This document shows positions 1-11,520 of a stretch of 12,498 nucleotides of DNA, piece by piece. The stretch lies in the NCBI GenBank assembly GCA_038886995.1, contig JAWALG010000028.1, positions 1-12,498 on the forward strand. The letters run 5' to 3'. Numbering within the stretch: position 1 is the first letter of the stretch; each line of letters begins with the position of its first letter. The translations under genes and the position numbers were made by a program. The notes beneath the pieces were generated by a model. The model was not told where the DNA came from, did no database searches, and saw only the letters and a list, made by a program, of their open reading frames with translations. Source of the stretch: Candidatus Iainarchaeum sp. (lineage in GTDB: Archaea; Iainarchaeota; Iainarchaeia; Iainarchaeales; DTGL01).

Positions 1-1626
1 AAAGTATGGTTTCAGACCGGCAAGAACTGAAACTTTGCCAACACCATTTAGGTCTGTTTTAGTTTCCCCAACAACATTGCCTGACATGGAGTCATATGCT
101 GTAATATTTACTGATTGCAACCGCTCATCATTTTCTCCATAAACAGTAAACTCAAAGTGTGCCTTTGGAATCTCTATTTTAATTACAACCTCAATCGGCT
201 TCTGCATTCCTGCCTTTGCCTCAAACATTCCACTGGATACTGGCGGGTAGTTTGCAAATGACGCCTTTGCATAGTAAATTCCTTCAGGCAGGTTGTAGAA
301 CTCACATTTGCCATCAGCACCTGTTGAGCATTGAAGGCCTGTTGATTCATTGCTCTTTTTGAATATCTCCACCTTTGCTTTTTCAAGTGGCTTTTCCTCA
401 GAATCCTTAACATAAACAAATAATGTTGTGCACTTATTCAGCTTTGATTCGTCGTATGTTATGTCATAAAATGATTCGCTAGGCCTTACCTTGAAATTTT
501 CTACCCATTCGCCAACTTTTACTATTAGATTGTAGTTCTTGTCTTCATCAACCCTAAATGTGTATTCCCCTTTGTCGTCAGCATATCTGCTTTGCACTAT
601 AACATTGTTTGCAAGGTCCCTAAGCTCGAGCATTGCCTTAACTGGCTGGCCTTTTGTATCAGACACACGCACCTTTATATTGTAAACCTTCTCGGCTGGT
701 TGTAAACTTACCTCAAATATTACTTGGCCAGCACCTTTTAGTTCTTTATACTCGCTTATTGTGCTCTTGTATTTTCCCGGCCCAGAGACGCTTATAGCAT
801 ATTTGCCTGGATCGACATCAGTAAAGCTAACGGAGCCAGCAGCGCTGCTTGGCAGAGGGCCTTCGATTGTTATTCCAAATTCGTTTATAAGCGAAACACT
901 TACTTCGCCAGCGCCGACAGCAAGACCAGTATCTGCACTTTTTATTACTGCAAGAATGCTGCCTTTTGTTGCAACGCTTTTAACCCTAACCTCAAAAGGC
1001 CTTGAGCTTATATCTGTTGTTGTGTATATGTCGCTGCCTACACGCAAGGTTAATGTTCCGCAATCGCTTGGTATTTTCTCAAGCGTTGCTTCACCACCAG
1101 AAGCAATGAGGTTTTTGTTCCACTCTGCTTTTGAGCAGTACGCAGAGAAATCTTTTACTTCGGTTGCTTTTTCTGATGTTTCGCCTTTGAGGAATATTAC
1201 CTTCTTATCAGCATAAGTAACAATTTCAATTGGCAGCACTATCTTTTCTTCTTTGTCACTCTCAAGCGACATTTTAAGTGAAGCTGATTTGTCTTGGTAT
1301 GTTGCTATTACAGTGAATTCCTTTTTTGCAGGTATGTCAAATGAGGCCTTGCCTCTTGAATCTGTTTTCTTATTTTTCTCTTCAAAGAATTGGCTTTTAA
1401 TTTTTACATCAGCATTGCTTATCGGCTGATTTTGCCTGTCCAAAACGGTTATATCGAGGGAGTAATATACTTCTTCTGCAGGCCAAAAAGTACTTATTAG
1501 GAAATAGGCAATTGCTGCCAACAACAAGAAAACTAACAGAAAAAATACTGGCAAAGGGATGCTATGCTCCTCGAGCCAAAACTTAAAATTCTCCCACTTC
1601 TCTTTTATGTTCTCAGTAAAGGACAT
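1..1626 (-). CDS. Large membrane-anchored surface protein with carboxypeptidase regulatory-like beta-sandwich repeats; partial (3' end runs off the window); paralog of the 2698-aa protein
   Basis: Not in the ORF track because it has no stop in the window. Hand translation from ATG at 1626 gives 542 uninterrupted codons: MSFTENIKEKWENFKFWLEEHSIPLPVFFLLVFLLLAAIAYFLISTFWP (one TM helix), then about six repeats opening with motifs such as LDITVLDRQNQPISNADVKI, IKVRVSDTKGQPVKAMLEL, LFVYVKDSEEKPLEKAKVEIF and FEFTVYGENDERLQSVNITAY, with T-D-x-x-G turns (TDSRG, TDLNG) and FTDVDPGKY / FYNLPEGIY, typical of CarboxypepD_reg/CnaB-like folds. It ends ...VSVLAGLKPYF at the window edge. Confidence 0.9.
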   Translation of the reverse strand, partial: MSFTENIKEKWENFKFWLEEHSIPLPVFFLLVFLLLAAIAYFLISTFWPAEEVYYSLDITVLDRQNQPISNADVKIKSQFFEEKNKKTDSRGKASFDIPAKKEFTVIATYQDKSASLKMSLESDKEEKIVLPIEIVTYADKKVIFLKGETSEKATEVKDFSAYCSKAEWNKNLIASGGEATLEKIPSDCGTLTLRVGSDIYTTTDISSRPFEVRVKSVATKGSILAVIKSADTGLAVGAGEVSVSLINEFGITIEGPLPSSAAGSVSFTDVDPGKYAISVSGPGKYKSTISEYKELKGAGQVIFEVSLQPAEKVYNIKVRVSDTKGQPVKAMLELRDLANNVIVQSRYADDKGEYTFRVDEDKNYNLIVKVGEWVENFKVRPSESFYDITYDESKLNKCTTLFVYVKDSEEKPLEKAKVEIFKKSNESTGLQCSTGADGKCEFYNLPEGIYYAKASFANYPPVSSGMFEAKAGMQKPIEVVIKIEIPKAHFEFTVYGENDERLQSVNITAYDSMSGNVVGETKTDLNGVGKVSVLAGLKPYF

Positions 1627-1662
1627 TTAAACCAACTGCCTCTATTAAAGGCCTTTTTTTGG

Positions 1663-1680
1663 TATTTATATAGTTATTTG
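1663..1680 (-). promoter_or_regulatory. Putative archaeal promoter (TATA box with A-rich upstream BRE-like segment) for the gene starting at 1626
   Basis: Minus strand reads caaataac-TATATAAATA (TATA-like element 1672-1663), about 37-46 nt upstream of the ATG, inside a 101-nt AT-rich intergenic gap (1627-1727). A weak AGAGG ribosome-binding-like motif lies between it and the ATG. Confidence 0.5.
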
Positions 1681-1727
1681 TAATTTATTAATCTTATCTT
1701 TAATTCAAAATACCTCTAATATTGTGA

Positions 1728-3419
1728 TTAAGGTACTTTAGGATAACAGCCATATACCTTTCCTTGATACTCATATGTTTGGCAAGTCCATTGGTCAGGA
1801 TTGCAGCTTTGTAGTGTTGGTTGGTGCTCTAGGGCACAACCAAGAGTGCCAAGAACTGAGCCAGAATTGTAGTTTGGGTTAAATGGTGTGTAGCTCATAT
1901 CAGGAATCTGGAACATAAACCTAACATTCCTGTTCTTGTTTACCTTATAGTTGGCATCGCCTTCTATAAAAGTCACAAAAAATGTAACTTCCGCAATCTC
2001 AGCACAACAGCTCCAGTTTTGGACTCCACAAAACCTTAACTTTTGTTCAAGGCCCGGTGCAGCAGCCATTAGAGCTGTGCAAACATCTTGCTGCACACTG
2101 ACTGTTTTTTCTGAAGGCCATTTTATTTTACTGCCCTCAAGATAATAGCCCAAATTTCGGTTTTGTGGTAGGTTGAAGTTGAAAGGGCATGCGCTAGGGT
2201 TGTTGGGCTCTTGCGGTGGCGCTATCCCTGGCAATGTAAGCCCAGGTGCAGAGAATTCTACTCTTTTTGCAGAAGTAGCGGTTGCATAAACCCTGTCAAA
2301 TGTTACATAGCAATCAACCCCTTCGACAGAAGGCCCTTTTGCGACAGTAAATTTTGCTGTGCTTAAAGGTGCAATATGCTGTGCTGAGAGATCACAGATG
2401 CGCATCTTTACAAGTTTTTCAAGTGATTCTCTTAAGTCCGCGCCATCTGAAGGGTTGTAAACAAAGGAATGGCCCCTAAAAGTGCCCGATACTTTATCCA
2501 GCTGGTTGCTGCCTGAATTTGGGCAACCTTTGTCATCAATAAACCTTGCAGTGGGCGGGAAATAAGGGTTCTCTCTGGGTTTGCAGTAACCATAGTCACA
2601 AATTCCTAATGCCATGGAATCAATTTCATTGTGTATTCTCGGAGACAAGTAGCCGTAGTCATTAGAGGAATTAACATTAGTAAGGTCAGTATGCATCAGA
2701 TACCTTGTGTACGCCATTGCCTTAAACAGCCTTGAAGGAACATACATCTTTAAGTCAGCTTTTGGTAATACGATCTCGCGTATCTCTTTTTTAGTTACCA
2801 GATCCTGGACAACAATCCTTGGCAAACTTTCATATTTTTCATTGCTAAGCTTTGTTATCCTGAGGTTAATATAAAAGCTGCCTATTGGACAACCCTGCGG
2901 CGTTCCGTCGCATTGAATTACCTCAATGAAATCCTCTTCTTCAGCTGAGACGAGTATCAGCTCAAGTATTGCCTCCTTTAATTTTTCTTCATCTCCAACA
3001 ACTTCGACTTTGTAACGCGCCTCATAAGTTAGCGTTTCCCTATAACCTCTTATCATCTCAGGCATGCTGTTAGCAATTTGTGATGCAAACATTGGCGAGC
3101 CACTGCGCCCGAAATAACCATGTATGAAATACTTTATTAGTGCATTCCAGTCCTCCCAAACAGAGAGGTCTTCTATTGGTATTGGGTTCATGCTTGTGTA
3201 ATACTCTATTTCTTCCCTAACATAATGGTTGAAGGAATTGAGAACATCAGTGCGCATAGTCCTAACAACTGCTTCGAGCCTGGCATCAGTTGTGGCATTT
3301 TCAACAAAGGTGTTTGCATTTCTTTCGCTTTGTATCATTATCAGAACAAGCATAGAACTTGTTACAACAATTATCATTGCAAGCAGCGCTGTGAAAAGAT
3401 TAAAGCCACGGTGCTGCAT
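1728..3419 (-). CDS. Cys-rich exported protein with class III (type IV pilin/archaellin-like) signal peptide; putative minor pilin/adhesin
   Basis: 563-aa ORF. N-terminus MQHRG|FNLFTALLAMIIVVTSSMLVLIMIQ has a short leader ending in R-G, then Phe and a ~22-aa hydrophobic helix. 16 Cys counted, most in the C-terminal half. Starts 4 nt after the stop of the giant gene and has a GAGGT RBS-like motif. The CDS is secure; the function is inferred. Confidence 0.75.
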   Translation of the reverse strand: MQHRGFNLFTALLAMIIVVTSSMLVLIMIQSERNANTFVENATTDARLEAVVRTMRTDVLNSFNHYVREEIEYYTSMNPIPIEDLSVWEDWNALIKYFIHGYFGRSGSPMFASQIANSMPEMIRGYRETLTYEARYKVEVVGDEEKLKEAILELILVSAEEEDFIEVIQCDGTPQGCPIGSFYINLRITKLSNEKYESLPRIVVQDLVTKKEIREIVLPKADLKMYVPSRLFKAMAYTRYLMHTDLTNVNSSNDYGYLSPRIHNEIDSMALGICDYGYCKPRENPYFPPTARFIDDKGCPNSGSNQLDKVSGTFRGHSFVYNPSDGADLRESLEKLVKMRICDLSAQHIAPLSTAKFTVAKGPSVEGVDCYVTFDRVYATATSAKRVEFSAPGLTLPGIAPPQEPNNPSACPFNFNLPQNRNLGYYLEGSKIKWPSEKTVSVQQDVCTALMAAAPGLEQKLRFCGVQNWSCCAEIAEVTFFVTFIEGDANYKVNKNRNVRFMFQIPDMSYTPFNPNYNSGSVLGTLGCALEHQPTLQSCNPDQWTCQTYEYQGKVYGCYPKVP

Positions 3420-3423
3420 AAAA

Positions 3424-6400
3424 TTACCTCTGCTCGGCTTTACATGTGTCGTACGTCTGCCATATCCTGTACTTTACCTCAACATCCATAGCATAGGTTC
3501 TTGCTTTGTCAGCAGACCTTTCTTTGCTTAGAACTTCAAAGGCAGACCTTATATTGTCCTGGTTTGCAGCTAACTTTTCACTTATGTGCATTGCGACGCA
3601 ATTTATTGTAAGCTTTATTTCCCCTTCTTCACTTTCATACCATTTTTGGTTCACAGGACATGGCTCAAAGTTCTCAAACCTTGTTGTAAGGGCAGCCATT
3701 ATTAGGGCTTCTTGCAAATTGAATTGGATTGATGCTTCTCTTATAAAACCGCTGTTTTTGTAGTATGCAACAACATCTTCTGGTTTTATGTAATCGCCTA
3801 CCTTGGGAGCCAAGCAGCCAACCATCTCAGAAAGCCCTTTTTCGCGGTATTCTTTGCAATCCTCACGCCACAATGCAGAAGGATTTTTGCTTATAGTGCT
3901 GCGCATCTCCTCTATTTCTTCAGGAGTATCTACCAATTCAAGGTTATAACTTGTGTTCCCATAGTCGTCCCTGCTTATTGTTATCTTGTAGGTTCTATTC
4001 TTGAGCAACTTTGGCCCAGTATAGCCACTTATAAGCTTTGAAGGATCTCCTATGCTAACACCCGCTTCAGGTATGTACCCTTTATCCATGAGGTCCTCAA
4101 TGCCTCCTTTTACATATGCGCTGTATGCAGCATAGCCAGCAGCATTGGAGGCCGCGCCGCACGCAATGCTTTTAGCCAACCTTGCCCAAAAAGTCCTTGT
4201 TTTAAGTGCGCTTAGCATTCTCTTAAATGCACCCGGCTGCTGTGTCTGTTTCATCACATCATCAGCGTTGCTAAGCACGTTTTCACCGTATCTTTGCATC
4301 AGGTTATTGCCTTGGTCCATCTTTACTCTTTCAAGTGCTTTATTTATGTATATATCCAAATTATCTGGGCTTAAACTGTCAGGTCCAACTGCCCTTTTTA
4401 CTGAAGCTTCTACGCCTTCACGCATACCTTTAGTGAATCTAACACCATATGTCTTATATCCTGCCTCTTCTATTTTATCAGCAATTGCACTTGCAAGTTT
4501 CTCTGGATCTACCTTGTATGATGAACGGAACATTGCTTTTATTTCATCGACATTAATATTCTTTGCGAAAAAGTCATCTGTTTGGCTTGCTATTAGTTTT
4601 TCTATTCCGGAACCTGGCTTCATGCCTTTGCTATAGACGATAGTTTTTATTGACTCGTCAGATGTTGCTTTCTGCCACATGCTTTTCACTACTGAGCCAT
4701 CCTTAATAACCTCCCCCAACGCTTTTGTCCCTTGTTCTTTGGCTTTCTCCTCTAATGTGCTTGCAATGCTTCTCTTCAAGGATTGTTGCAGTGTTGGAGT
4801 TAACGCATTGACAAATTCATCTGATGCTGATTGTGAAACATTAACAAGGTATTTGGAAGTGAAGCTCTTTGTTGCTTGCTGGGACATTTCCTCGGCAATG
4901 CTGTCAATTAAACCAAGCCTACTTACTCTATCCATTGGTAGTTTAGACCAACCTTTGGAAAAAACATAAGAACGCAATTCTGTTGCAAGCCAGTCTGCTT
5001 CAAAGCCAAGTATTGCTGCAGGCACTGCATTGTCCCAGTATTCATCCATTGCTTGGCCATAAAGGCCTGCTTCGGTGTTTGGTGTTGCCTTTCCACTGCT
5101 CCAGGGCGCATAGAACCAGCGCAAGTTTGATTTAACAGTTTCCCAAGCATCACCTAAAGCTTTATAGAATCCTTGCCCTGCTTTTGTCGTGCCAAGTAGG
5201 CCGCCAGCTGTGGCAGGCAGGCAATCAATCACGGCATTTATAAAGGCCTTGAGTCCTAAAGGATCTAAACCTGTAACTACATGACAAATAAATGAAGTAA
5301 GTAAGCAAGCACCGAAGTAAAGCCCATATCCTTTCCTTTTAAGGTCAAGTATCTTCTGGCCTATTGGGGAATCATCTATTCGGCCGCCTTTGCCAACCTC
5401 ATCCATAAGCTCTTGTGCTTTCTTAAGTCTGTCGCTCGCAGTCAAGCCTCTTGTTGCAGCAGCGAAATCAATCTCATTTGGCTCTCCTTTCCACCCAACA
5501 GTAGCATAGAAAACCTTGCTCTTTCCAGGTTCTACTTTTTCATTCGACATCTTTTGTATTAGCTTATACGGGTGTATTCCGCAGATTTCAAGTGTAACTT
5601 CCTTCCATGAGCGCATTTCTTTAGTCGCAAAGATAACACTCCTGGCTTTAACACCAATCTTCTTGCCTGCTGCAAGCTCAAAGTAAGTATCATTAGCTCT
5701 TACGCACAGCTTGAAGCTTTTCTTGAACTTTTTGCTTTCTTCGCTTTCTTTTTCAAGGGAAATTGCAGTTCCTTCTTGGTTTTCAGAATACTCCAAAATC
5801 CTTTTACCATCAACTTCAATCCAAACTTCTTGGATGCCCGCTTTTTCATTTTCGCTCATCGAAGCAAAGCTTGTTTTGAGTACCACTGGTTCAAGTGTTG
5901 TGCTGACTACATTCATGTCAACGCACATGGGCATTCCATAATAAAGCTCAATCGTATCTGATGCTTTTTCAATGTCAAGGTCGCCGGTATGCTCAAGCTT
6001 TGATATTATGAGCGCAGATTCATCCTTTGTTATGCAGCCCTCAATTGTAAATGAACCTTCCATCAGCTGCTTAAGCGCTTCAGATGCCTTTGCAATCATC
6101 TCATCTTGCATCTTCTCATCAAGCGTTACATAAAGCTTGTTGAGGGTAACACCCAAGACAGCTGGCTGTGCTTGCTGCTGTGATACCTGGTTCATTGAAA
6201 TCTTGGCAATCCCGCTTTCAGGAATCTCGCCAAGAATTACTTTAAGCTTGTTTGTATGGTATGCTACATTAACACGCCTCTTATCATCAAAGAGCTTCTG
6301 TGAAAAGACCTCGGCTGCCTTGCGCATCGCATCTGTGCCCTCAGTTGTTCCTAGCCATGTGTTGTAGTGCTTATCAGCTGTAAGCCCACGGTCAAGTGGC

Positions 6401-9400
6401 AGGAAATTTGCAATGTTCTGTATACGCATCATGCACTCAGGTGTAACCTTCCTATCTTCAACAACCTTCACAAGTATAAAGTAATTCTCTCTAGATAATC
6501 GCCCTTGGACATTTTGCACGGCGCCCTGTACCGATAATTTATAACGACCACAGCCAACCAATGGCTTTGTCATGAATATCTTGCTTGTTGTAAAACCAGT
6601 GGCACTCTTTACTATATCGCTAACATCGCCTTGGAAGTATTCTGTTATAAATGTTGAAAACTCCTTGGAACTTTCAACCCTTCTTTGCAGAACTTCTTTT
6701 CCAAGAGAATCATTTCTCATATAAACAGTGTAAACCTCTGGCACTATGCCCATTGCAGAAAAGCTGCAAAAGCCCTCCGTTTGGCTGCACATTGCGTAGC
6801 TGCTTACTAAATCATTCTGCTGCAGCACTTTGTCAACTTTTTGCATCACACCTTTGATCCGCTCGACAATATAACCAGAGAGCTGCATTGCATCACAGTA
6901 TCCAGACTCACAGCCAATGTCTGCGCTCATTACAGGGAACTGTACTGATTTTGTAACAGATGGTGGCTCTCCGCATACAGGTAGTTGCACTTCTTTATAT
7001 GCTGGGCCACCTGATACATCTGGCTTCTTTCCCACTTCAACAAGCACCGGCAAAGGATTAGAGTCAACGAATTTTTGGCTATTCACAAGGAATCCACTAA
7101 CGGTTATGTTGTCTGGCCTTTGTGCATTAAAGTAGTCACCGCGTTTGCTGAGCAAAATCTGCGCTTGAGCGCTTTCGTCAGGATACAAGAATTCTTTATC
7201 GCCGAGTAGCGTTATGCCCAAGGTATTGTTTCCGAGGTTTTGTGGTTTCAAGAGGAAGTTCCTAATAACCTCGCCGCACTCATTCTTTATATTTATTTTT
7301 TTAGAGATCACGCCTTGTGAAGAGTCCTCACTTGAAAAGTAAAGCTCATCAACAGGGGAAATCTTTATGCATTGTGCTGTTGAAACGAAAACCCATATTG
7401 AAACAACCTTCTGGAATTGCTTTCCATCAACAGTGCCTGTAAGTACTATCTCACCTTTGTGTGGGCCTCTAGTGAGGTTTGCTGCATTACTAGTTGCCAA
7501 TATTGTTCTTGGCTCCATCTCTTCGCCTGGGGCGAGAGTAACAGCAAACTGTGTTCCAGTCATTGCTGGATTTCCTTGTATGTATGGTGTTGGAGGTGCT
7601 TGCACGAAGTTCTGCATTCCAGGCATCTGCAGGCCTGGAGTGCTTTGTGGCTGAGCCGGCGTGCTACTGCCAGCTGAAGTAATATAAACCTCAATCTGCT
7701 GCGGTGCCTTAACACTCCACCTTATATTTTCAATTACCTTTTTGCCAAAGTTCTTTGCAAACAAAGGTGCTGTTCCAGTAAATGAGCCCTTAGAGGTATC
7801 AAAGCTCATGAAAATAGGTATGTTGTCGTTTGTTTGCAAAGCGTAAGCAGGATCTGTGAATAAGATCCCTAAGCTAACACTCTTTGTAATCTCTGGTGCA
7901 TCAAGCAGTATGGTTGCTTCTACTTTTTGCTCAAAGACACCTACTCTTTCAGCATTGTTTGTTATTTTCAACTCAATTGTTTTTGTTTCGCCAGGTGCTA
8001 TTGTGAACGGCTGTGCTGTTAGCGTTATTTTATTGTCATCGCTTTTCATCTTTGGTGTAAATGTGAGCGGCTTGTTGCAAAAGGCCTCATTCTTGTAAGT
8101 TATTGTCAATGGCAAAACTTCAGTTGATCCGGAAATGCCTGAAAAGTGCATCTCTGCTTCACTTTTGTCAATCTCAATGCACTCAGGCGGGATCTCCTTA
8201 TTATAAGAAATTTTTATCCTGCTTTTTGCAGTAACCACTGGGTTCTCTGAGCCACTAACAGTTAACTCAAATTCAGCATATGCTCTTTTCTCAGGATCGC
8301 CTTTGTATGTAGCAACTACTTCAATATCAATAGACCTATTAATATCAATTTTTGCAGGCAAGGCCACAATTATGTTAAAATCGCCAGTGTCTCCAGTTAG
8401 ACCTTTTACCTCATACCCAAGCTTATCTATTACATCGAAAGAATTATTTGTTAGCTTTATCTTTGCGCTTCTTTGCTTTTCACCTTTGTTTAGCATTATC
8501 TCGAGCTGAGGTTCAATTGAGAGCATCTTTTCTGCTGAAATTACTAATGGGAATGTTGCTTCTTTATAGCCAGTTGCCTTTGCTGTCAACACATACTTTC
8601 CTGGGCTCAGCTTGTCAGTGCCTAGAGTGTATGAGCCATTTGCTCCGTTTTCGTTGGTATTGTTGCCAGCAGTGCTTAGAAGCACCTCTCCGTCTCTAGC
8701 AACAGAGACAAATGCATGTGTAATTGCCTCTTTTGTTTCCGCATCCCTGAGCGTAACCTTTAGCTTTTCGCCTGCTTTTATTTCTCCATTTTTATATATC
8801 TCAGCAATAATCTGCCTACTACCAGTTACATTGAAGCTTACCTTCTTTGAAGCATTGAGGTCTGCTGCTCTTACAAATGCCACAAGTGTTGCTGCTCCAG
8901 GCGCATTCCCTTTGAAATACGCTCTTACCGACTTTGGAGTGTTTCCATCTAACTTTAAGCTGCCTCGAAGTTCTGCTTTTGAAAATTCCGCCTTAGGGCT
9001 GAATGATAGCAAATCCTCACTAAGATCAGAAAGCATCACATTTGAATTTTCGCTTCTAACAGTGAGCTCGGCATTCATTCTTTTGTCAGATCGCACTGTA
9101 ATTTCAAGAGCATAAGGTTGGCCTTCTGCAGCTGAAAAGCCCTCCTCTTTAAGCTTCAGGTTATTTGAATCTATTATCGCTAACTCTAGACACAAATCTT
9201 GTGAGCATTCTGCCTTTCCTTCCAGTATGCGCACTCTTGCAACCTTTGTTTCTGCGTAAAGTGCCTGCTTAGCATTGCTCGTTTTTTCATTTTTAAGAGT
9301 GCTATCTTCAGGATCTCTAAACACATTTGCGCCTATTTCGCTCCACGCCCTATAATGCACTTCAAAGTCATTTTCCTTGCCTATGTTTTCTGTTTTTACC

Positions 9401-11520
9401 TTTATCCCTATTACTGCCTGTGATGGCGCCTTGTCAAAGTAAAGTTCAAGCCATTTGTTTCTTTCATTTGCCGAGCCCCTGCTTGCAAGGTCTCTTTGTT
9501 CAGCAAGCGGTGGCTGGTAGCTTTTACCATACATGAAGCTGCTAACATTTCCATCAAAGCCAAAAATGCCAACCTCTTGTGAATCAGCAAGAGCAACACT
9601 ATCTGGGCCAACTCTCACATGAATTCCTGCTTTTTCTCCTTGAGGGAAAGTGACATTAAAGCGCAGCCATGCAAATTCGCCAGCAGTCACACCCTCAATA
9701 TTTTTGCCACTGGCATCAAATACTCCAGTAAACTCTATTGCTGGCTTTACGCCATCTGTTTGTTCTTTTTTATCAGGCCCTAAGCGCACCTCAGCAACAT
9801 TGTTTGCACCAACCCTAACCTCTTGTTCAAATGTTCTGCCATCTGGTGTTTTAACACTCACAAGGAAACTGTCGTTCATTTCACTGTCAAAGATTGCGCT
9901 GCCATTTACATTGCCAGTAAAGAGCACCTTTCCGCTTTTGCTTTTTACAGTGACTTCGCCCCTTAAAGGCAAACCATTTTCGTCAAGCAATACCAGTTCC
10001 ACAATGTTTGGCTTTCTTGAAAGGTTTATGTCTACCTGTTGGTCAATGCCAGCCATCACTACTATTTCCCTTTCACCATATTCAATTTCAGTTTCAGCTG
10101 TTATAAGGAATGTTCCCTCTGGCAGTGTTTCAATTATTGTTCCAGTAAGACCTGTTTTTCTTACAGGTATTCCCACAGGAATCTTCATTTCATTTGCTAT
10201 GCGATAATATTTAACTGCGGCATTGTTTGCAATGTTGCCTGAGCTGTTCCTTACAGTTATTCTCACGAGTGCCGAATTTTGCGCTGTTGGCTTTTCAAGC
10301 TTAATATCCATGCTTTTGGTTCCTGCACTTATCCTTCCATATGCTGGTAGAAAGCCCTCCTTATATGCAGTAACATAGTAATCTTTGTTTGGGTCAACAC
10401 CATCAAATGAAGCATTTCCCAAAACAGCAGTTTTCTTTGCGGAAACAAGCTGCAAGTTTGAGTCATAAAGCGAAACATCTGCATTTACCTGTACGATGCC
10501 ATCCTTTGAAGTGACATTTATTGTAAGCTGTGCACCGCCTTTCTTTAAGTATATCTTTTTCACAACTTCTGCTGTCCTTATGGTAAACTCTTCAACATAG
10601 CTTAAGTAGCCAGCTTTTTCAATGATAATCCTTACTTGGGTGTTTATCTTTATCTTCTCAGTATGGTCGCCGCTTTGAGAATTTATATCTGTTATCGTAA
10701 CACCAGTTGCGGAATTTATAATTCGAATGCTAACCCCTTTGACAAGATTTTTTGTTTCTTCGTCGTATACACTTATCAGCAGCGTACTTAAATTCACATC
10801 AACTGTTTTTGGCTTAAGCTTCACTACTTTAGTTTCCCCTTCATCGAACCGCATCGCTTCTTGTAAATCTTCATATCCATCAGCCGTGCACTTTAGCACA
10901 ACATCTGCTTTCTGAGGCACATTTACCATGAAAAGCCCATCAGCATCACGCACTAAATTCAAAGTATTCCTGTCAAACGAAACCTCGCACCTTGCATTTC
11001 TGACAAGAGTTGAAGTTAGTTCATCAATAAGCCGAACTTTTGCAGAGACAAGCTTGGCTTCTCTTTTAAGCGTAATGTTTATGGTTAAATTATTAGAATT
11101 TACCTCTTTCTCAGCAGATGCGCTCCTATAGCCAGCTTTTGAAGCCGATGCGGATATCATTGACCCAATTTTGATCCTCTTCAATTCTAATTTGTATCCA
11201 CTTTCCACAGTTGTGCTTTTCAGCGTTTGGCCTTCGTTGTATACTTCAATTTTAACGTCGCTTAGCGATTGTCCAGCGTCATCCCTGACAATGATAGTCA
11301 AGCTGACATCTGTGTAAGCGCCACCACCTGCAAATGAGAAAAATATTACCAAAAGAAGCACTATGACTGCTATTGTAAAAGGCAAAGAGGGTATGCCTCT
11401 GTTCTCAAGAAATTCAGCATAGCTATATGCAGGAATGCCTTTTTCCTGCAGCGCTTTAAGCAACTCAAACCATTTTTCCTCTATGTTTGCGTAAATAGAG
11501 CCAAGCTTATCCATTATCAT
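3424..11520 (-). CDS. Giant (2698 aa) membrane-anchored multi-domain surface protein, carboxypeptidase regulatory-like domain-containing
   Basis: Single uninterrupted ORF. N-terminal amphipathic segment and TM helix (LPFTIAVIVLLLVIFFSFAGG). Six ~85-aa beta-sandwich repeats at aa ~70-580 (V-x-D starts; KAGY/ADGY/KEGF motifs) and a seventh at about nt 8545-8765. Further Ig-like domains (TIAPGETKTIEL, TLAPGEE, LYPDES motifs), a Cys-rich mid-region, a helical module at aa ~2064-2473 and a distinct C-terminal domain. About two dozen N-x-S/T sequons by manual count. GGAGTG RBS 6 nt upstream; an alternative ATG lies at 11514. Confidence 0.92.
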   Translation of the reverse strand: MIMDKLGSIYANIEEKWFELLKALQEKGIPAYSYAEFLENRGIPSLPFTIAVIVLLLVIFFSFAGGGAYTDVSLTIIVRDDAGQSLSDVKIEVYNEGQTLKSTTVESGYKLELKRIKIGSMISASASKAGYRSASAEKEVNSNNLTINITLKREAKLVSAKVRLIDELTSTLVRNARCEVSFDRNTLNLVRDADGLFMVNVPQKADVVLKCTADGYEDLQEAMRFDEGETKVVKLKPKTVDVNLSTLLISVYDEETKNLVKGVSIRIINSATGVTITDINSQSGDHTEKIKINTQVRIIIEKAGYLSYVEEFTIRTAEVVKKIYLKKGGAQLTINVTSKDGIVQVNADVSLYDSNLQLVSAKKTAVLGNASFDGVDPNKDYYVTAYKEGFLPAYGRISAGTKSMDIKLEKPTAQNSALVRITVRNSSGNIANNAAVKYYRIANEMKIPVGIPVRKTGLTGTIIETLPEGTFLITAETEIEYGEREIVVMAGIDQQVDINLSRKPNIVELVLLDENGLPLRGEVTVKSKSGKVLFTGNVNGSAIFDSEMNDSFLVSVKTPDGRTFEQEVRVGANNVAEVRLGPDKKEQTDGVKPAIEFTGVFDASGKNIEGVTAGEFAWLRFNVTFPQGEKAGIHVRVGPDSVALADSQEVGIFGFDGNVSSFMYGKSYQPPLAEQRDLASRGSANERNKWLELYFDKAPSQAVIGIKVKTENIGKENDFEVHYRAWSEIGANVFRDPEDSTLKNEKTSNAKQALYAETKVARVRILEGKAECSQDLCLELAIIDSNNLKLKEEGFSAAEGQPYALEITVRSDKRMNAELTVRSENSNVMLSDLSEDLLSFSPKAEFSKAELRGSLKLDGNTPKSVRAYFKGNAPGAATLVAFVRAADLNASKKVSFNVTGSRQIIAEIYKNGEIKAGEKLKVTLRDAETKEAITHAFVSVARDGEVLLSTAGNNTNENGANGSYTLGTDKLSPGKYVLTAKATGYKEATFPLVISAEKMLSIEPQLEIMLNKGEKQRSAKIKLTNNSFDVIDKLGYEVKGLTGDTGDFNIIVALPAKIDINRSIDIEVVATYKGDPEKRAYAEFELTVSGSENPVVTAKSRIKISYNKEIPPECIEIDKSEAEMHFSGISGSTEVLPLTITYKNEAFCNKPLTFTPKMKSDDNKITLTAQPFTIAPGETKTIELKITNNAERVGVFEQKVEATILLDAPEITKSVSLGILFTDPAYALQTNDNIPIFMSFDTSKGSFTGTAPLFAKNFGKKVIENIRWSVKAPQQIEVYITSAGSSTPAQPQSTPGLQMPGMQNFVQAPPTPYIQGNPAMTGTQFAVTLAPGEEMEPRTILATSNAANLTRGPHKGEIVLTGTVDGKQFQKVVSIWVFVSTAQCIKISPVDELYFSSEDSSQGVISKKINIKNECGEVIRNFLLKPQNLGNNTLGITLLGDKEFLYPDESAQAQILLSKRGDYFNAQRPDNITVSGFLVNSQKFVDSNPLPVLVEVGKKPDVSGGPAYKEVQLPVCGEPPSVTKSVQFPVMSADIGCESGYCDAMQLSGYIVERIKGVMQKVDKVLQQNDLVSSYAMCSQTEGFCSFSAMGIVPEVYTVYMRNDSLGKEVLQRRVESSKEFSTFITEYFQGDVSDIVKSATGFTTSKIFMTKPLVGCGRYKLSVQGAVQNVQGRLSRENYFILVKVVEDRKVTPECMMRIQNIANFLPLDRGLTADKHYNTWLGTTEGTDAMRKAAEVFSQKLFDDKRRVNVAYHTNKLKVILGEIPESGIAKISMNQVSQQQAQPAVLGVTLNKLYVTLDEKMQDEMIAKASEALKQLMEGSFTIEGCITKDESALIISKLEHTGDLDIEKASDTIELYYGMPMCVDMNVVSTTLEPVVLKTSFASMSENEKAGIQEVWIEVDGKRILEYSENQEGTAISLEKESEESKKFKKSFKLCVRANDTYFELAAGKKIGVKARSVIFATKEMRSWKEVTLEICGIHPYKLIQKMSNEKVEPGKSKVFYATVGWKGEPNEIDFAAATRGLTASDRLKKAQELMDEVGKGGRIDDSPIGQKILDLKRKGYGLYFGACLLTSFICHVVTGLDPLGLKAFINAVIDCLPATAGGLLGTTKAGQGFYKALGDAWETVKSNLRWFYAPWSSGKATPNTEAGLYGQAMDEYWDNAVPAAILGFEADWLATELRSYVFSKGWSKLPMDRVSRLGLIDSIAEEMSQQATKSFTSKYLVNVSQSASDEFVNALTPTLQQSLKRSIASTLEEKAKEQGTKALGEVIKDGSVVKSMWQKATSDESIKTIVYSKGMKPGSGIEKLIASQTDDFFAKNINVDEIKAMFRSSYKVDPEKLASAIADKIEEAGYKTYGVRFTKGMREGVEASVKRAVGPDSLSPDNLDIYINKALERVKMDQGNNLMQRYGENVLSNADDVMKQTQQPGAFKRMLSALKTRTFWARLAKSIACGAASNAAGYAAYSAYVKGGIEDLMDKGYIPEAGVSIGDPSKLISGYTGPKLLKNRTYKITISRDDYGNTSYNLELVDTPEEIEEMRSTISKNPSALWREDCKEYREKGLSEMVGCLAPKVGDYIKPEDVVAYYKNSGFIREASIQFNLQEALIMAALTTRFENFEPCPVNQKWYESEEGEIKLTINCVAMHISEKLAANQDNIRSAFEVLSKERSADKARTYAMDVEVKYRIWQTYDTCKAEQR
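3426..3430 (-). promoter_or_regulatory. Shine-Dalgarno-like GAGGT overlapping the stop codon of the giant gene (probable translational coupling)
   Basis: Minus strand reads gcaGAGGTaattttATG. GAGGT lies 6 nt upstream of the ATG at 3419 and includes the T of the TAA at 3426-3424. Confidence 0.6.
9781..11313 (-). repeat. Six tandem, diverged carboxypeptidase-regulatory-like (CnaB/transthyretin-like) protein repeats
   Basis: Repeat starts: SLTIIVRDDAGQSLSDVKIEV, SAKVRLIDELTSTLVRNARCEV, TLLISVYDEETKNLVKGVSIRI, QLTINVTSKDGIVQVNADVSL, LVRITVRNSSGNIANNAAVKY, IVELVLLDENGLPLRGEVTV. Visible at protein level only; no near-identical DNA repeats were seen. Confidence 0.8.

Follow-up and report, generated by a model that had tools for sequence, protein, structure and literature searches.

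The window analysed here, a 12,498-nt stretch of contig JAWALG010000028.1 from Candidatus Iainarchaeum sp., carries four genes, all on the minus strand (Table 1). This study concerns one of them, which encodes a giant protein (P0001), and in particular a predicted helical module near the C-terminus of that protein, whose hydrophobic borders are conserved among relatives and whose interior has diverged. From its N-terminus, P0001 is ordered into a membrane anchor, a beta-sandwich stalk, a Cys-rich conserved region, the helical module and a C-terminal alpha/beta domain, with its Pfam beta-sandwich domains confined to amino acids (aa) 230-1240.

Table 1. Genes and features of the window, with positions counted from its first nucleotide (KD19, Kyte-Doolittle mean over 19 residues; dG, insertion free energy; pLDDT, predicted local distance difference test; dN, nonsynonymous divergence)
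Feature	Position	Strand	Basis or remark
Exosortase/archaeosortase-family protein, 216 aa	11577..12227	minus	TIGR04178 33.4 bits, cut-off 23
Giant open reading frame P0001, 2,698 aa	3424..11520	minus	only long open reading frame covering the region
N-terminal transmembrane anchor, aa 46-64	11329..11385	minus	KD19 2.79; summed dG -2.6
Conserved strand and GWKG-x-P motif, aa 2002-2012	5485..5517	minus	directly before the helical module
All-helical module, aa 2019-2479	4084..5466	minus	AlphaFold2 secondary structure
Hydrophobic helix hairpin, aa 2064-2110; Cys2072/2079/2100, D-C-x-x-P motif	5191..5331	minus	
Trp/aromatic-rich stretch, aa 2111-2200	4921..5190	minus	pLDDT 33-61 for aa 2111-2180
Hypervariable charged helical interior, aa 2201-2440	4201..4920	minus	identity, dN, gaps
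Closing helix, aa 2444-2473; Cys2454, near-invariant Gly2455, Asn2459, Gly2462	4102..4191	minus	
C-terminal alpha/beta domain, aa 2509-2698; beta-hairpin and helices	3427..3996	minus	model, Foldseek
Cys-rich 563-aa protein, type IV pilin-like N-terminus	1728..3419	minus	pilin reading by eye
Second giant surface protein, first 542 aa, beta-sandwich stalk	1..1626	minus	

The helical module and the family of P0001

The original prediction had described aa 2064-2473 as a helical module bounded by hydrophobic, Cys-containing segments and set between beta strands, and had proposed that it might insert into the membrane of a partner cell. The peptides it quoted all lie where it placed them within the one long open reading frame (ORF), with KVFYATVGWKG at aa 2002-2012, AVPAAILGFEADWLA at aa 2165-2179, RTYKITISRD at aa 2509-2518 and YNLELV at aa 2525-2530. 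Its four cysteines (Cys2072, Cys2079, Cys2100 and Cys2454) were likewise located, with no cysteine between 2100 and 2454, and the stretch that it called Trp-rich contains six Trp within aa 2101-2200.

An AlphaFold2 model of aa 1941-2698, built on the 30-row alignment A1 (mean pLDDT 77, predicted template modelling score 0.43), is consistent with the proposed helical module, with aa 2064-2473 falling inside a predicted all-helical stretch of aa 2019-2479. The hairpin was modelled as two helices (aa 2052-2082 and 2089-2109, pLDDT 72-85) and the closing segment as part of one long helix (aa 2442-2479, pLDDT 60-79), whilst flanking strands were modelled at aa 2001-2008 (assigned by DSSP), 2509-2517 and 2523-2529. 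The hairpin contains the top 19-aa window of the ectodomain for hydrophobicity (Kyte-Doolittle 1.74, with 1.40 for its second helix), compared with 2.79 for the N-terminal anchor. A complex prediction pairing the hairpin (aa 2045-2115) with the closing helix (aa 2436-2482), each drawn from A1, scored 0.14 against a mark of 0.32 and counts neither way.

Four relatives, full-length or nearly so, emerged from a word-indexed search with aa 1990-2698, their identities being 76, 58, 51 and 43%. Two of them are named Candidatus Diapherotrites; the full-length relatives at 76, 58 and 51% derive from Iainarchaeum/Diapherotrites metagenome-assembled genomes (MAGs). Exhaustive HMMER searching with the same residues extended the family to 29 proteins at E ≤ 0.001 (15 at E ≤ 1e-10 and 4 at E ≤ 1e-30), mostly 2.7-3.4 thousand aa long, and a genome scan with a 7-row alignment found seven loci, all in Candidatus Iainarchaeum or archaeon MAGs. 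Every relative that bears a name is assigned to Candidatus Iainarchaeum or Diapherotrites, Iainarchaeum being a member of the Nanobdellati, formerly DPANN.

Conserved borders, a cysteine pair and a divergent interior

The module is retained in relatives as distant as 24-35% identity and both of its borders form conserved islands, which argues that it is more than a chance arrangement. Conservation was measured in bits per column over 28 rows, the close relatives P0002-P0005 and P0009 having been left out. The highest value was reached by the GWKG-x-P block (2.88 bits). Values were 2.4, 1.8 and 2.1 bits in three 15-residue blocks of the hairpin, and 2.2 and 2.4 bits in the closing helix, in which Gly2455, Asn2459 and Gly2462 are near-invariant; the module interior scored 1.2-1.7 bits. 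Among five close homologs, mean pairwise identity was 0.58 for the hairpin and 0.61 for the closing helix versus 0.34 for the interior, where 67 of 289 columns contained gaps. The expectation of conserved borders around a variable interior is thus supported.

Residues 2201-2400 are the most divergent stretch of the whole of P0001. Identity to P0002 falls to 0.54 over aa 2201-2300 and 0.42 over aa 2301-2400, compared with 0.71-0.92 in the other 100-aa windows, and the corresponding values for P0004 are 0.29 and 0.17, compared with 0.47-0.89. Measured against the ortholog at locus L001, dN in the interior was 0.379, or 3.6 times the protein average, with 0.05-0.11 elsewhere. Synonymous divergence (dS) from the same ortholog was saturated (1.2-2.6), so the interior dN/dS of 0.15 says little and positive selection is not claimed.

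Cys2072 is present in 22 of 22 relatives and Cys2100 in 19 of 22 at the aligned column, the remaining three rows carrying D-C-G-I-P a few columns off. For Cys2079 and Cys2454, the 22 hmmalign rows with residues at both positions comprised 17 with both cysteines, five with neither and no discordant row. Six further non-redundant relatives were also concordant (both cysteines in the giant of locus L006 and in P0019, neither in P0052, P0053, P0054 and P0016), bringing the overall count to 19 with both, nine with neither and none discordant (n = 28). This joint presence or absence in 28 of 28 relatives suggests that Cys2079 and Cys2454 form a staple, as the original prediction had envisaged for its four cysteines. 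Two disulfides are probably formed, one within the hairpin (Cys2072-Cys2100) and one joining the hairpin to the closing helix (Cys2079-Cys2454). The first pairing would follow from geometry, since an antiparallel hairpin turning at aa 2083-2088 places residue 2072 opposite ~2099-2100. Both FastTree and the best IQ-TREE tree required three changes for the Cys2079/Cys2454 pair, and FastTree placed the relatives lacking the pair in three separate clades; two columns had been dropped from the IQ-TREE alignment, the second of which was not the Cys2454 column.

Possible functions of the module and the domain behind it

Insertion free energies were roughly estimated as a simplified 19-residue sum on a biological hydrophobicity scale. 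Only the N-terminal helix gave a negative sum (-2.6), compared with +1.9 for hairpin helix 1, +7.3 for helix 2 and +7.1 for the closing helix. Of 22 relatives with the hairpin, six had a KD19 of at least 1.6 and none had a summed dG of 0 or below, so that hydrophobicity of transmembrane grade is not a family trait, and the hairpin is not consistently strongly hydrophobic among relatives. Two to six charged residues occur per 47-59 aa of hairpin across these relatives, Asp2099 and Pro2102 are conserved in helix 2, and the near-invariant Asn2459 lies in the closing helix. All 22 relatives carry one to four Lys/Arg in the ~7-11 residues preceding helix 1, the basic residues thus flanking this helix on its outer side and not in the hairpin turn.

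The original prediction had noted that small-residue hairpins occur in type III translocators, tape-measure proteins and pore formers of the colicin kind; no significant match of the module to any of these was obtained in Pfam, PHROGs, PDB sequences or Foldseek. At E ≤ 0.1, the module matched no Pfam family, including the pore-forming colicins, and the four pieces searched against PHROGs returned no family. Sequence searches of the PDB gave nothing relevant (best E 1.3 for the single protein with phmmer and 0.2 for the profile), and the best ESM Atlas values, 0.84 for the module and 0.87 for the end domain, all lay below 0.9. The whole model, compared with the PDB by Foldseek, retrieved generic helical proteins only (best E 0.15, template modelling (TM) score ~0.1); none reached E ≤ 0.1, and among the matches shown there was no colicin, Bcl-2-like protein or diphtheria T domain. 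Against BFVD, the top matches were tape-measure, injection and internal virion proteins, none of them significant (best E 0.01, TM ~0.10, root-mean-square deviation >30 Å; none at E ≤ 0.001), and they are a lead on working logic only. Neither the helical module nor its operon was described in the literature searched, in which PMC11329633 and PMC13705601 had no bearing on the family.

Modelled separately, the C-terminal part (aa 2480-2698) reached a pLDDT of 86 and a predicted template modelling score of 0.70, and its top Foldseek matches in the PDB were g-type lysozymes, MltC, MltF, Slt and LtgA, with g-type lysozymes or the lytic transglycosylase MltC filling seven of the first ten matches shown. 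Of 23 sequences, 21 conserve Glu2604 and 18 conserve Asp2554. We treat a lysozyme-like fold for aa 2509-2698 as a weak, model-based lead. The module and the end domain occur together in most full-length relatives, and in two relatives recognised peptidoglycan hydrolases lie behind the module. P0026, annotated in one source as a "transglycosylase SLT domain-containing protein" of a Diapherotrites archaeon, carries an SLT domain at aa 2746-2875 (E 2.3e-10) with E-S, G-M-F-Q and A-Y-N-G motifs, and P0020 carries NlpC/P60, Amidase_3 (E 1.6e-19) and Glucosaminidase domains. To our knowledge, archaea of this group lack peptidoglycan, and hydrolase domains in them therefore point to action on bacterial walls. 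The module is distal and sits beside these wall-lytic domains, so contact with the envelope of another cell is plausible. Archaeal peptidoglycan hydrolases can kill bacteria, according to the available text of PMC12352652.

Two further features of these relatives were observed. The three different peptidoglycan hydrolase domains of P0020 stand in tandem (aa 2869-3315); few archaeal proteins would be expected to have so full a complement of wall-degrading domains. In P0026 the closing helix is separated from the end domain by an acidic, Cys-containing, Asp-rich insert of the D-G-x-D-N-D-G-D type (aa 2490-2535), which resembles a calcium-binding motif.

Our preferred explanation, in which we place roughly even confidence, is that the module forms a helical head, stapled by disulfides, whose contact surface evolves fast and which is located in an envelope-attacking tip; the head probably engages the envelope of another cell. 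One N-terminal helix would hold P0001 in the archaeon's own membrane and the long beta-sandwich stalk would carry the ~460-residue head outward, the topology we presume for the protein. The hairpin and the closing helix would pack together, tied by the two disulfides, and this stapled core would preserve the fold while ~240 residues between them evolve fast. The variable helical surface would then touch the partner cell whilst the lysozyme-like end domain, if P0001's own copy is active in this way, would cut the partner's wall, supplemented in some relatives by true peptidoglycan hydrolases.

Several observations weigh against this explanation. The lysozyme-like matches of the end domain are weak, the best having E 0.028 (probability 1.00, TM 0.36/0.44) and none reaching E ≤ 0.001. 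Alignment of the end domain with the SLT stretch of P0026 by hhalign gave a probability of 0.6% over 22 columns, with no E-S catalytic motif at the aligned position; Pfam SLT is absent from P0001, and recognised peptidoglycan hydrolases were found in only two of the 21 relatives scanned with Pfam. The approximately unbiased (AU) test does not reject a single clade for the five rows lacking the cysteine pair (p 0.133), which together with the three-change trees leaves one to three independent events, and the co-occurrence of Cys2079 and Cys2454 may accordingly rest on one. The fast interior may reflect relaxed constraint and not selection for diversity, given the saturated dS and the dN/dS of 0.15. 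Finally, a free-living lifestyle has been suggested for Iainarchaeota (PMC10936187), and a partner cell is therefore not established.

The strongest rival, to which we give about half the credence of the stapled contact head, is latent membrane insertion, in which the head opens once the tip has reached a partner cell and its wall has been cut, and the stapled hairpin then enters the partner membrane and forms a pore, a fusion site or a conduit, perhaps joined by the aromatic-rich stretch behind it, which may enter too. Of the original proposal of insertion into a partner membrane, the plausibility of envelope contact at a distal, wall-lytic site stands; insertion itself found no direct support and some contrary evidence. 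In its favour, the hairpin helices are ~21 residues each, helix 1 runs for 21 residues free of charged side chains and is the most hydrophobic part of the ectodomain, Lys/Arg precede it in all relatives examined, and a Trp-rich stretch of low model confidence follows the hairpin. In phage tape-measure and ejection proteins, long helices and hydrophobic segments occur together with a muralytic domain, and the whole is delivered to the envelope of another cell. The distal position of the module beside muralytic domains follows the same logic, and it is to proteins of this kind that the non-significant top BFVD matches belong. P0001 resembles them in its helices and moderately hydrophobic, small-residue-rich segments beside a lysozyme/transglycosylase-type domain, but differs in that it is not part of a virion; it is a surface protein of a cell, anchored at its N-terminus and equipped with a stalk of 2,000 aa. 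With colicin pore-forming domains it shares a hairpin of two apolar helices in an amphipathic or charged helical domain; unlike them, its module is about twice as large, and its hairpin is charged (2-6 residues), not conserved in hydrophobicity and probably disulfide-tied. Insertion is further opposed by the unconserved transmembrane-grade hydrophobicity, by the high energies of helix 2 and the closing helix with their conserved Asp2099, Pro2102 and Asn2459, by the lack of a significant link to pore formers in the PDB, BFVD, Pfam or PHROG searches, and by the predicted staples, which would need either to open or to shift together, with no trigger evident.

A more far-reaching version, which we regard as somewhat less likely again, makes P0001 a contact-dependent "harpoon" against bacteria, whose tip would first cut peptidoglycan by means of a divergent lysozyme-like domain and then drive the stapled hairpin into the bacterial cytoplasmic membrane as a conduit, with the hypervariable surface setting the targets.

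We consider it unlikely, more so than either form of insertion, that the module is a scaffold holding glycan strands for the end domain, in the manner of the Slt70 superhelix, with the hairpin as buried core and no role in recognition or at membranes. About twenty helices lie directly N-terminal to the lysozyme-like domain, an order of parts shared with Slt70-type lytic transglycosylases, and the co-occurrence of module and end domain in most full-length relatives would fit such a scaffold. Slt and LtgA appear among the whole-model matches, but at ranks 30 and 45 with E 0.46-0.65 and TM 0.10-0.14 (0.11-0.14 for Slt70-type proteins), which is no real support; the end domain differs from Slt70 in lacking the E-S motif at the aligned position, and its catalytic competence is not established. 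A scaffold role also leaves the fastest-evolving part of the protein, its interior, unexplained, and we know of no Slt70 counterpart for that interior.

It is highly improbable that the hydrophobic segments serve as ordinary membrane-spanning anchors in the cell that produces P0001, so that the protein would be tethered at both ends. Although the Kyte-Doolittle value of helix 1 is near the usual threshold, all summed energies other than that of the N-terminal helix are positive and no relative reaches 0, the basic residues lie on the outer flank of helix 1 and not in the turn, and four conserved cysteines, two of them co-varying, fit a folded extracytoplasmic unit.

Genomic neighbourhood and significance

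The order of giant protein, 563-aa pilin-like protein and second giant was found at six of the six loci with downstream DNA. The 563-aa protein starts with M-Q-H-R-G-F followed by a hydrophobic stretch (read by eye) and matched no Pfam or PHROG family, the ComGF model reaching only E 0.029; perhaps it is a minor pilin of large size, or else a protein of the tip. In relatives the second giant is ~2,440-2,480 aa long; it has a beta-sandwich stalk but no hydrophobic hairpin. An archaeosortase-like gene lies upstream at two of the four loci with upstream DNA (L001 and L002, not the more distant L005 and L006); the protein encoded in the window passes the TIGR04178 cut-off, and no subfamily model reaches its own.

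Further observations concern the same neighbourhood. A C-terminal hydrophobic helix of the kind used as a sorting signal by an exosortase/archaeosortase is absent from all three neighbouring proteins. In the closest relative, at L001, the DNA upstream of the operon (150-3293) encodes a platform protein of the T2SSF type (E 2.7e-6) together with two small ORFs that start like pilins, a hint that the locus of the giants is one for a type IV filament. No Rfam family or tRNA was found in the window. An antisense ORF of 163 aa (4145..4636, plus strand) overlaps the helical module and has no Pfam match; it is probably spurious, because the overlapped minus-strand frame is conserved across relatives.

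Two other parts of P0001 are of interest in their own right. All 11 giants printed start with a leader of ~45 aa that contains a repeated G-I-P as well as an amphipathic helix; its last residues, directly ahead of the membrane helix, are [KR]-G-[IL]-P-[SA]-[FL]-P (read by eye). The leader region (aa 1-64; window 11329-11520) is covered by no Pfam or NCBIfam model, and may act either as a long signal of class III (prepilin-type) or as a sorting signal of a new type. The second giant (window 1500-1626) and a third downstream gene (L001 21308-21500) start with a similar leader. Farther along the protein, aa ~1400-2000 (window ~5520-7300) form its best conserved part (0.88-0.92 identity to P0002), with family-wide Cys-containing motifs including Y-C-D-A, G-C-G-x-Y, N-F-L-P-x-D and C-G-I-H-P-Y, and have no Pfam or PHROG match.

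Giant DPANN proteins of a comparable kind have been reported. Castelle et al. 2021 (PMC8204110), in the parts of that paper available, describe proteins of up to ~3,000 aa, predicted to be membrane-bound or extracellular and in some cases carrying GH23, and propose that they bind and cut bacterial walls; large lytic murein transglycosylases in DPANN are also mentioned in the available text of PMC9723730 and PMC10936187. One family of Castelle et al., fam00969, comprises 201 sequences with GH23 in a fraction of 0.53 and occurs in 0 of 25 Diapherotrites genomes (Table S3 of PMC8204110). The P0001 family shares with fam00969 its size, membrane anchor and DPANN origin, together with an SLT domain in the relative P0026. 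It differs in that its named members are Iainarchaeum or Diapherotrites, in that P0001 has no Pfam SLT domain, and in its stapled module, of which the available parts of PMC8204110 make no mention; the two families are compared by description only. With the disulfide-stapled contact head as our preferred explanation, we file the P0001 family as a kind of giant extracellular wall-attacking DPANN protein.

The molecular basis of DPANN attachment to, and uptake from, other cells is largely unknown, and giant transglycosylase-bearing proteins are known in print, so far as the available parts of PMC8204110 go, as a family with a proposed wall-binding role only. The present analysis adds the residue-level anatomy of a related Iainarchaeum family, comprising a conserved apolar core that is probably tied by disulfides, a hypervariable helical surface, a lysozyme-like end domain and a conserved operon with the pilin-like protein and the second giant. 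On this basis, recognition of the partner, cutting of the wall and any entry into a membrane can each be traced to a part of the protein by direct tests. Should the harpoon reading prove true, archaea would possess a new class of device for breaching envelopes, and parasitism of an archaeon on a bacterium would be directly evidenced in a phylum thought to be possibly free-living. A peptidoglycan substrate, if confirmed, would make the partner a bacterium and so inform the dispute over host dependence in the phylum.

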